Shown here: positions 4,693-13,593 of the stretch, piece after piece | Numbering within the stretch: position 1 is the stretch's first letter | How the letters are laid out: each line of letters starts with the position of its first letter | NCBI GenBank assembly: GCA_016218805.1 | Contig: JACRCW010000080.1 | Span: 62,001 to 126,000 of the forward strand | Length of the DNA: 64,000 nt | Direction: 5' to 3' | Source: Deltaproteobacteria bacterium | GTDB taxonomy: Bacteria > Myxococcota > JACRCW01 | Position numbers and translations under genes: made by a program | Notes under the pieces: generated by a model | Told to the model about the DNA's origin: nothing | Seen by the model: only the letters and a program-made list of their open reading frames with translations | Database searches by the model: none

Positions 4693-5112
4693 ATGATCTC
4701 CACGGTGGAAAAGGTGCTGTTCCTCAAGGGCGTGGACCTGTTCTCGGCCATCCCGGGAGAGGACCTGTCCCAGATTGCCCAGATTGCGGATGAAGTGGAG
4801 ATGGACTCCGGCGAGACCATCTTCAAGGAGGGAGACCTTGGGGATTCGCTCTACCTCATCGTCTCCGGCAAGGTGCGCATCCACCGCGGGGACAAGGAGA
4901 TTGCGGTGCTGGGGGAAAAGCAGGTGTTCGGCGAGATGGCGCTGTTGGACAGCGAACCGCGCTCCGCCTCCGTCACCGCCACCACGGACGTCAGCCTGCT
5001 GAAGATCACCCAGGAGGACTTTGCGGACATCCTGGCTGAGAAGGGCGAGATTGCGCAGGGTATCATCAAGGTGCTCACGCGCCGGCTGCGCGGGCAGCTG
5101 ACGCGCAAGTGA
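4693..5112 (+). CDS. Stand-alone cyclic nucleotide-binding domain protein
   Basis: IFKEGDLGDSLYLIVSGKV and phosphate-binding cassette FGEMALLDSEPRSASV. No HTH follows. Confidence 0.92.
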   Translation: MISTVEKVLFLKGVDLFSAIPGEDLSQIAQIADEVEMDSGETIFKEGDLGDSLYLIVSGKVRIHRGDKEIAVLGEKQVFGEMALLDSEPRSASVTATTDVSLLKITQEDFADILAEKGEIAQGIIKVLTRRLRGQLTRK

Positions 5113-5123
5113 GGAGGACCGCC

Positions 5124-5453
5124 ATGGGTCTTTGGGAGCAAGCCACCGCCGCGGCCAGGGAGGCGCGCGCCGACCACGACCAGCTGCGCGCGCGTTGGGA
5201 GGAGGTTGCCCGCCGCCTGTTTGGCGCAGCACCGCGCCCGGCGGGAGAGACCGCGCCCACGCTCACCGTGGACCATGACGGCCACGCCCGCCCGGACGCG
5301 CAGCCCCACGCGCTGCGCATCCTGGGGCAGTCGCTGTTGCTCGCCGCCTCGTCACTGCTGGCCGCCGGGATGGCTTGGCTGGCCGCGTTCTTCCTGGGCC
5401 TCTACCTGTTCTTCCAGCGCCTGTTTGGCCTGCGCGTCCACGCCCCGGCCTGA
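5124..5453 (+). CDS. Small hypothetical membrane protein
   Basis: RBS GAGGAGG before the ATG at 5124; long C-terminal hydrophobic segment. Confidence 0.65.
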   Translation: MGLWEQATAAAREARADHDQLRARWEEVARRLFGAAPRPAGETAPTLTVDHDGHARPDAQPHALRILGQSLLLAASSLLAAGMAWLAAFFLGLYLFFQRLFGLRVHAPA

Positions 5454-5470
5454 CGCGCTCTCGGGACGCC

Positions 5471-5504
5471 ACAAAACGTTGAGGGCCCCGTCACCGGGGC
5501 CCTC
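5471..5504 (-). terminator. Intrinsic terminator-like hairpin (may also act bidirectionally)
   Basis: Perfect 10-bp stem GAGGGCCCCG/CGGGGCCCTC with a GUGA (GNRA) loop on the minus strand, followed by AACGUUUUGU. Confidence 0.75.
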
Positions 5505-5602
5505 GCGTCTCATTCCATCTCAACCGCGCCATTCCATTCCAAGCGACCGATCACCCAAACCAACATTCCATCCCATGAAAGGCCACCCGGAGGCGGCAAC
5601 GG
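5471..5602 (-). ncRNA. Predicted sigma-54-dependent small RNA (~130 nt) with repeated GGAAUG motifs
   Basis: Lies between a sigma-54 box (5613-5629, minus strand) and a terminator hairpin. 5' hairpin GCCGCC-UCCG-GGUGGC (5582-5597). Four GGAAUG copies (plus-strand CATTCC at 5511, 5530, 5535, 5564). Ends are approximate. Confidence 0.65.
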
Positions 5603-5612
5603 GATTCACTTG

Positions 5613-5629
5613 AGCAACGGCCGCGCCAG
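5613..5629 (-). promoter_or_regulatory. Sigma-54 (-24/-12) promoter
   Basis: Minus strand CTGGCGC-GGCCG-TTGCT matches TGGCAC-N5-TTGCW with exact GG-N10-GC spacing. Confidence 0.75.
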
Positions 5630-5656
5630 GGTGGAACCCGCGCCCGGCCAGCGCGC

Positions 5657-5683
5657 AAAAAAACAAATCATGTCAAACTATTA
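5657..5683. promoter_or_regulatory. IHF-like binding site
   Basis: TGTCAAACTATTA (5671-5683) has one mismatch to WATCAANNNNTTR and is preceded by an A-tract (5657-5667). It sits between the sigma-54 box and the upstream palindromes. Confidence 0.55.
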
Positions 5684-5735
5684 TGAACTCCACGCGGCCC
5701 CGGCGGCCCAGCCGACCCAACCGTGGAACGGCGCC

Positions 5736-5755
5736 CAGACCTGACAGGTCTGTCA
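5736..5755. promoter_or_regulatory. Overlapping palindromes, candidate enhancer-binding-protein site
   Basis: CAGACCT-gac-AGGTCTG (5736-5752) overlaps TGACAG-gt-CTGTCA (5742-5755), about 135-155 nt upstream of the predicted sigma-54 start. Confidence 0.45.
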
Positions 5756-5905
5756 TGCCAGGTCCCATGAGCGTCACTGCGCGGCCCCCTCAGACAGGGC
5801 GGCCTGAACACGGGAATTCGGCGACGGGGCTCCCTCAAAGCCATGATCCACGGGGCCAATTCGCCGCGTCTGGACGCGGCGATTTGGGAGCGTCCGTTTT
5901 TTCCA

Positions 5906-5934
5906 TTGACAGTCCGGATCCGGTCCGTTAGTTG
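5906..5934 (+). promoter_or_regulatory. Sigma-70-type promoter of the Fic-like gene
   Basis: TTGACA-N17-TAGTTG. Confidence 0.5.
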
Positions 5935-6069
5935 CGGCCACCAATTCTAAAACCGTAATGGCCCCGCACGGTTGGACCCAAGATTCAAAGCGGAGCCCCC
6001 CTGTCAGTTGGCCCAGTCGGACGCAGGCAGTTTGCCCGGCGGTGGGATTCCATCCCCTTGGAGGTTGAC

Positions 6070-6882
6070 ATGGCTGTGCAGGATTTTGATCTCAAGTCTC
6101 GCTACCTGGACGTGGACGACCGGCTGGTTGAGCTCAAGACGCTCGTGGAGGAGGCGAACTTTGCCCAGGCGGACTTCCGGGAAAAGTTTGACATGTCATG
6201 GATTTACCATGACTGCGGCCTGGAAGGTATTGTGCTGTCCTACCACGAGATCAAGGCCGCCATTGACCGCAAGGTGGCCTCTGACAACCACTTGCTGCCC
6301 ACCTACACGCTCATCAAGAACCTCAAGGGCGCCATGGACTACGTGCGGGACCAGGCCTCCCGCAAGACCTCCCGGGTCAGCGTCCAGATGATGCAGGACG
6401 TGCACGCCATCCTGGTGAAGGGCTTTGAGAAGTACGAGCCGGGCGCGTACCGCAAGGACATCCCCATCCACCGCAACTACTTCCACGAGATCTCACCGCC
6501 CCACAAGGTGGCCGCGCGCATTGAGAAGCTGATGGAGACCGTGCAGACGGCTGACTTCCGCTCGTGGCATCCCATCAAGCAGGCCGCTGCGTTCCACCAT
6601 GAGTTCCTGGGCGCGTTCCCGTTCACGGACCACTCGGGCCAGGTGGGCCGGTTGCTCATGAACTTCTTCCTGCTGCGCGGGGACTACCTGCCCGCCGTGA
6701 TCCACGCGGTGGACCGCCAGCGCTATTACGAGAGCCTGCGCGGCACCAACAGCCTGGCCCTGCGCGAACACCTGGTGGACGCCATGGAGAACGCGCTGGA
6801 GAGCGCCATCCAGTACCACCGTGACGCCCTCAAGACCGCTGAGCTGATGCGCCGGCAGTCCGGTTACGACGCCACCAAGTGA
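6070..6882 (+). CDS. Fic-domain protein with degenerate active site
   Basis: Fic fold motifs WIYHDCGLEG, PGAYRK and HPIKQAAAFHHEF. The signature reads FPFTDHSGQVGRLLMN instead of HPFxDGNGRxxR. RBS GGAGG before the ATG. Confidence 0.88.
   Translation: MAVQDFDLKSRYLDVDDRLVELKTLVEEANFAQADFREKFDMSWIYHDCGLEGIVLSYHEIKAAIDRKVASDNHLLPTYTLIKNLKGAMDYVRDQASRKTSRVSVQMMQDVHAILVKGFEKYEPGAYRKDIPIHRNYFHEISPPHKVAARIEKLMETVQTADFRSWHPIKQAAAFHHEFLGAFPFTDHSGQVGRLLMNFFLLRGDYLPAVIHAVDRQRYYESLRGTNSLALREHLVDAMENALESAIQYHRDALKTAELMRRQSGYDATK

Positions 6883-8713: not shown

Positions 8714-13593
<4,880 letters not shown>

Follow-up and report, generated by a model that had tools for sequence, protein, structure and literature searches.

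Sigma-54-dependent small RNAs (sRNAs) include Qrr1-5 (LuxO), GlmY/GlmZ (GlrR), CrcZ (CbrB) and NrsZ (NtrC), and some of them carry repeated functional motifs, which are A-rich in CrcZ and take the form of a triple repeat in NrsZ. These examples act through Hfq, Crc or RapZ. In the myxobacteria, the one sRNA that the Pxr literature presents as characterised is Pxr itself, a 108-nt non-coding RNA of Myxococcus xanthus and its relatives, which is apparently transcribed from its own upstream sigma-54 promoter and folds into multiple stem-loops with a terminator at the end (PMC5568312). The pxr gene adjoins nla19, an activator gene, and the same source reports that no Hfq homologs were found among the myxobacterial genomes sequenced (PMC5568312); a further paper describes the binding targets of Pxr as still unknown (PMC11928866).

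The locus considered here lies in a window of 64,000 nt (the whole stretch of DNA that was analysed) from a genome of 6.43 Mb and 70% GC, which is held in 170 contigs, is 92% complete (G000) and finds its best DNA matches in groundwater metagenomes. GTDB holds a single other genome of the family, from a sister genus (G001), and the class is represented by two more. A gap of 600 nt between two plus-strand units of the window houses the candidate (Table 1), whose best explanation, at a probability of roughly 0.5, is a lineage-specific, sigma-54-dependent, base-pairing sRNA of ~131 nt, read on the minus strand from ~5602 to 5472. A promoter box, palindromes, an AT-rich stretch, repeats and a terminator are all present, with no coding gene behind them: a crude gene call based on GC3 finds no minus-strand ORF between 1432 and 6962. 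The coherent sigma-54 unit without a protein gene that was set out in the original prediction is thus borne out as a layout. Elsewhere in the window, GAPDH and PGK are encoded in a single open frame (10483-13593).

Table 1. Features of the candidate sRNA locus and its neighbours (window coordinates; minus-strand features are given as they stand on that strand where a direction is shown).
Feature	Position	Strand	Remark
cNMP-binding gene	4693-5112	+	Pfam PF00027
114-aa ORF, membrane protein gene	5109-5453	+	adjoins the candidate RNA locus
Intrinsic terminator (10-bp stem with GUGA loop; tail AACGUUUUGU)	5504-5471	-	U-tract on the minus strand
Repeat 4, GAUGGAAUG	5511-5519	-	kept in G001; just 5' of the terminator in both genomes
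Repeats 2 and 3, CUUGGAAUGGAAUGGCGCGG	5524-5543	-	20/20 identical in G001
Repeat 1 with flank, GGGAUGGAAU	5565-5574	-	perfect complement of the Fic-leader site
Local 5' hairpin GCCGCC(UCCG)GGUGGC, exposing CCUCC	5582-5597	-	-11.2 kcal/mol as a local fold
Predicted RNA, ~131 nt	~5602 to 5472	-	start placed from the -12 element, end from the U-tract
Sigma-54 -24/-12 box TGGCGC-N5-TTGCT (TGGCGCGGCCGTTGCT)	5628-5613	-	exact match to TGGCRC-N5-TTGCW
AT-rich stretch, A-tract and IHF-like core, between palindromes and promoter	5657-5690		consensus match by eye
Two overlapping palindromes, candidate activator site (UAS)	5736-5755		UAS role suggested by position only
Candidate target site, AUUCCAUCCC	6047-6056	+	Fic mRNA leader
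Fic-domain gene	ATG 6070 to 6882	+	PF02661; divergent from the candidate RNA

Both of the palindromes that had been predicted upstream of the promoter are found there. The first, CAGACCTG-A-CAGGTCTG (5736-5752), is a perfect 8+8 repeat, and the second, TGACAG-GT-CTGTCA (5742-5755), overlaps it; their centre lies ~142 bp upstream of the predicted RNA start. The 17-mer of the first palindrome occurs once in the 6.43 Mb genome, and because of this uniqueness it was rejected as a regulon-defining site and no regulon can be defined from it. Between the palindromes and the promoter the GC content falls to 0.40 (5660-5699), against 0.70 genome-wide. The IHF consensus is WATCAA-N4-TTR, and the AT-rich stretch, read by eye, consists of an A-tract followed by TGTCAA-ACTA-TTA, which resembles it. 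Of the IHF-like site with an A-tract that had been proposed, the AT-rich stretch and the A-tract are therefore present, and the likeness to IHF is one judged by eye.

The sigma-54 box predicted on the minus strand at 5613-5628 is likewise an exact match, and differs by one base from the consensus TGGCAC-N5-TTGCW. Two exact matches to TGGCRC-N5-TTGCW occur in the window, compared to a mean of 0.39 in shuffled sequence, and across the genome there are 37, compared to ~12 expected, the latter being an estimate by composition. Nearly half of the genomic matches (18/37) fall outside called ORFs, that is, in 29% of the DNA, and ~9/37 are members of one multi-copy unit. The machinery that such a promoter would use is encoded: rpoN, which the original prediction had named as a gene to look for, was found (Sigma54_DBD, 222.5 bits), ~34 of the 40 Sigma54_activat matches listed for the genome score at least 120 bits, and there are three genes of the HU/IHF family. 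None of the 40 listed activator matches lies on the contig of the window. Considering the presence of rpoN, activators and HU/IHF genes, the 37 versus ~12 matches and the 18 of 37 that lie outside ORFs, this intergenic, exact box is probably real.

The multi-copy unit is an observation in its own right. It consists of a sigma-54 box followed by near-identical sequence, often ~160 nt from contig ends, and was seen at C36:168, C60:50480, C65:151, C67:27211, C127:49541, C131:52320, C145:163 and C155:163. No complementarity of 10 nt or more was found between this unit and the candidate RNA.

The same counts bear on an alternative in which there is no dedicated RNA, the box has arisen by chance, the hairpin serves simply to terminate the convergent operon on the plus strand, which ends at 5453, and some other reason accounts for the conservation of the repeats. 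By composition, about 12 chance matches per genome are to be expected among the 37 observed, and two or more matches were reached in 8 of 100 shuffles of the window. The hairpin, moreover, begins 28 nt past the stop codon of the 114-aa gene. However, no gene occupies the gap in which the box lies, its distances from the unique palindrome and from the AT-rich stretch are the right ones, and the features downstream of it, discussed below, speak further against this alternative.

The four GGAAUG repeats that had been claimed for the minus strand are present between 5569 and 5511, as four GGAATG copies within 59 nt (5564-5569, 5535-5540, 5530-5535 and 5511-5516), and in three of the four the sequence reads AUGGA, fitting ANGGA as had been stated. 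The hexamer itself has 29 copies in the window on both strands together, but such dense clusters are very rare: only five places in the genome have at least three copies on one strand within ~130 nt. Three of the four other clusters look coding by sequence reading, one of these three being a PGMM-type coding repeat. In one stretch on the minus strand of contig C154 of the same genome (43650-43950), which is less GC-rich and non-coding-looking, (C/T)GGAATG occurs three times within 107 nt, and no sigma-54 box was seen there by eye. Intergenic matches to ATGGAATGG and GATGGAATG in the source genome gave no sibling copies with a promoter-to-terminator frame, and several of them lie at putative gene starts (Met-Glu-Trp).

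The predicted terminator, with its 10-bp stem, GUGA loop and U-rich tail, is also found at 5504-5471. Its stem (5504-5481) has 10 pairs, 9 of them GC, closed by the loop GTGA and followed by the tail AACGTTTTGT, and with its flanks it has a folding energy of -27.5 kcal/mol. The terminator is a strong one, with its U-tract on the minus strand only, and it may double as the stop for the convergent plus-strand operon, whose end is at 5453. None of 200 shuffled versions folds as well as the whole 140-nt stretch (z-score -3.67). The hairpin with a C(UCCG)G loop that had been proposed for the 5' end is a valid local fold, but the global optimum (-63.2 kcal/mol) lacks it and pairs the 5' segment, including CCUCC, with the tandem GGAAUGGAAUGG instead; enforcing the hairpin gives -53.3 kcal/mol, a cost of ~10 kcal/mol. 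The minimum-energy structure also leaves repeats 2 and 3 partly paired, with unpaired probabilities of 0.37 and 0.46, respectively, which counts against the base-pairing reading.

Support for an RNA at this position comes from the sister genus. When 5440-5780 was searched by BLAST against 40 relatives, no match was returned, and the G001 homolog was missed too, being found only via synteny; the conservation that the original prediction had proposed to look for in relatives was therefore missing by BLAST but present by synteny, as the repeats and a terminator on the same strand. Contig C364 of G001 carries the ortholog of the cNMP-binding gene, at 92% identity, together with that of the 114-aa gene (43%, E 3e-11), and the homolog lies downstream of both on the same relative strand. 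The comparison spans 190 nt, from the 114-aa ortholog to the contig end, which falls inside the RNA, so that repeat 1, the 5' hairpin, promoter and palindromes all lie beyond it. A search of G001 for this 5' half returned only chance GC-rich matches in coding regions.

Within the 190 nt, the G001 block CTTGGAATGGAATGGCGCGG is identical to window positions 5543-5524 (20/20) and a second block, GATGGAATG, to 5519-5511 (9/9), with a hairpin-forming insertion of ~60 nt between them. Directly 3' of the second block there is a terminator whose sequence is unrelated and whose U-tract lies on the same strand, and the remainder of the gap gave no alignment between the window and G001 outside the conserved blocks. 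At four-fold degenerate sites the two genomes are identical at 35/64 positions in the cNMP-binding gene and 58/100 in the Fic gene, i.e. 55-58%, a level near saturation given such GC3. Since the repeat blocks are identical while four-fold sites are near saturation, the blocks are under purifying selection, and the terminator is kept in structure and strand without conservation of its sequence. Judged from these two genomes, the conserved blocks and the same-strand terminator are good evidence for a functional RNA on the minus strand.

The same comparison weighs on the alternative without a dedicated RNA, as the U-tract stands on the minus strand in both genomes and the conserved blocks sit exactly between box and terminator; we regard that alternative as rather unlikely. 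It also bears on whether the transcript might instead be the message of a sigma-54-driven micro-protein, namely the 18-codon frame MGWNVGLGDRSLGMEWRG starting at 5576, which is the only ORF inside the predicted RNA. Its ATG lies 27 nt past the predicted start, and the same frame in G001 crosses the conserved block and stops three codons later. Against a coding role, the GC3 of the frame is 0.44, compared to 0.86-0.90 in the neighbouring genes, there is no good Shine-Dalgarno (SD) sequence, the G000 and G001 peptides differ upstream of the block, and, in both genomes, the stop codon comes before the fourth conserved repeat, which is outside any short ORF. This makes a peptide-coding function very unlikely, and a non-coding, base-pairing sRNA is the reading followed here.

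Beyond the two genomes of the family, the sister family (G002, G003) has no GGAATG and no sigma-54 box at its syntenic loci within 1.5 kb. A scan of 401 genomes of the phylum for a triple TGGAATG pattern, which also misses G001, gave nothing convincing: its 35 match rows, two of them in the source genome, are mostly regular tandem repeats, as judged from the matched strings. Because neither the sister-family loci nor the phylum scan yielded a homolog, the RNA looks confined to one poorly sampled family. Two irregular triple-repeat matches were rejected as intergenic repeat arrays with no promoter or terminator frame, and are not homologous to the candidate RNA. These are arrays of a CCATGGAATGTGGCTGACACCTGTC-like unit on the minus strand of their loci, at ~1470-1560 of L281 (G081:C26) and ~1500-1600 of L282 (G056:C5), in a divergent intergenic region of another family of the phylum, and may be repeated DNA sites or a different RNA. 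Matches to the 15-mer TGGAATGGAATGGCG in public metagenomes and genomes were likewise set aside, those among the 239 screened being chance occurrences in unrelated taxa or satellite-like repeats; the 15-mer is too short as a pattern, and real metagenomic homologs may exist.

A candidate target lies close by. In the leader of the divergent Fic gene, AUUCCAUCCC is complementary over 10 nt, without a mismatch, to GGGAUGGAAU of repeat 1, and this site ends 3 nt before the SD sequence GGAGG (6060-6064) that precedes the ATG at 6070. None of the 12 other genomic copies of this 10-mer lies beside a ribosome-binding site. The site is absent from the Fic leader of G001, where the Fic gene (86% identical) lies elsewhere, behind an ilvE-like gene. 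Genome-wide, complementary k-mers were not enriched in 5' regions over shuffled controls, and RNAduplex run on 4245 crude 5' regions produced meaningless full-length duplexes, with Fic ranked 1747. From sequence complementarity, the Fic link is thus a testable lead, a candidate and not a result.

The Fic site also invites a reading at the level of DNA, in which the ATTCCAT(C/T)C repeats would be binding sites of a transcription factor, three of them within the RNA gene and one before Fic. On the plus strand there are indeed four direct copies of the 10-mer, at 5512, 5531, 5565 and 6047, and the TGGAATG-based intergenic arrays in an unrelated family of the phylum (L281, L282) offer a parallel. 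Such sites would, however, leave the promoter-to-terminator frame and the same-strand terminator of G001 unexplained, their spacing is irregular (19, 34 and 482 bp) and the Fic leader of G001 has no copy. We therefore hold it highly improbable that the repeats are transcription-factor sites, and return to a repeat that acts in RNA.

Several observations were made on the Fic gene itself. Its protein has matches in 19 of the 21 genomes searched, G000 included, and seems to be a conserved Fic of the housekeeping kind, not a mobile toxin module. Short contigs from four other studies, one of them a soil metatranscriptome, match the leader and start of the gene (6002-6180) at ~97% identity with a 1-nt insertion after 6017, which indicates that close relatives occur outside the source study. 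The four sequencing runs compared with the locus, out of 12 listed, match its flanks, and none of them covers 5455-5671. Upstream, on the plus strand, there is a hairpin with 15-nt arms, 93% complementary, followed by TTTTTT (5856-5902), near which no plus-strand gene of the window ends. Immediately 3' of it is a sigma-70-like Fic promoter, TTGACA-N17-TAGTTG (5906-5934). The Fic ortholog of G001 likewise has a terminator, a T-run and TTGACA-N17-TAGATG in front, with another gene upstream.

Putting these elements together, the locus may work as follows. An activator bound at the palindromes, aided by an IHF-type bend, would switch the promoter on, and the RNA would be made from ~5602 and stop at the terminator. 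The conserved (G/A)AUGGAAUG repeats would serve as seeds that pair with CAUUCC-containing mRNAs, with the RNA presumably acting in trans and without Hfq. One predicted target in this genome is the divergent Fic gene, where pairing beside the ribosome-binding site could block access of the ribosome and hence translation.

A different use of the same repeats is that the RNA is real but serves as a protein decoy, its GGAAUG/AUGGA motifs titrating an RNA-binding protein in the manner of CsrB/RsmZ. The repetition of a short motif four times, the AUGGA reading of three copies, the conservation of the motif but not of the surrounding sequence, and the lack of target enrichment in the searches above would all fit such a decoy. 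What it lacks is a partner: in this 92%-complete genome csrA was not found (0 PF02599 matches among 32 scored candidates), nor was hfq (0 PF17209 matches) or proQ. The sole RRM-domain match in the genome, in a 645-aa open frame, has no link to the RNA. There are also only four motifs, and in the predicted fold the GGA-containing repeats are single-stranded or embedded in helices, with none of the four in a hairpin loop. Of the two modes of action that the original prediction had offered, the CsrA/RsmA sponge is accordingly not supported, as no csrA was found to partner it and no motif is predicted in a hairpin loop, and csrA and hfq, both of which it had listed as genes to look for, were not found in the 92%-complete assembly. 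A decoy for some other protein we consider unlikely. Decidedly unlikely is the version in which a novel RNA-binding regulator recognises the conserved GGAAUG repeats and is titrated by the sigma-54-switched RNA, as a global switch like Csr but made of other components, in a lineage with no Hfq, CsrA or ProQ gene found; if that were true, the first partner to consider would be the genome's single RRM-domain protein. The broader claim of a new regulatory sRNA has fared better than its sponge variant, being consistent with the lack of a known RNA family, the selected repeat blocks and the same-strand terminator in G001.

If the base-pairing reading is true, this would be a second sigma-54-driven sRNA in the group, unrelated to Pxr, with a seed that is both repeated and clearly conserved, an activator site of its own that is unique in the genome, and a specific candidate target in the leader of a Fic AMPylase. 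It would also provide a tractable entry into Hfq-independent riboregulation, in a group with dozens of sigma-54 activators and no Hfq. As the organism is uncultured and the RNA a predicted one, the immediate impact is modest.

How, then, does the candidate relate to the sRNAs already described? A cmscan with all 4227 Rfam families, a scan that had been part of the original proposal, returned no hit that reached gathering score over the whole window. Even at E<=10 no family matched the minus strand between 5200 and 6000, and at the G001 locus there was no relevant match. With no Rfam match, the candidate is not of the Pxr, Qrr, GlmY/Z or CsrB type by sequence and structure, and the earlier impression that it is not recognisable as Pxr agrees with the Pxr covariance model, which found no match.

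Pxr nevertheless remains the closest analogue, as a small non-coding RNA with an apparent sigma-54 promoter and a terminator, from bacteria of the same phylum-level group for which no Hfq homolog was detected. Unlike Pxr, the candidate has no adjacent activator gene, its neighbours being the 114-aa membrane protein gene and the Fic gene, and the repeated GGAAUG motif is, to our knowledge, not a described feature of Pxr. Compared to Qrr, GlmY/GlmZ, CrcZ and NrsZ, it shares, as predicted here, the arrangement of a candidate upstream activator site, a putative bend, a -24/-12 promoter, a short predicted RNA and a terminator, but differs in having no Rfam match and no hfq found, and in belonging to a different phylum. 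It resembles the CsrB/RsmZ sponges in the repetition of a GGA motif along a short RNA, with three copies fitting ANGGA, but stands apart from them in the lack of a detected csrA and in its motifs, which number only four and are predicted to lie outside hairpin loops. On these likenesses and differences, the candidate is a probable new family within the sigma-54-dependent sRNAs.
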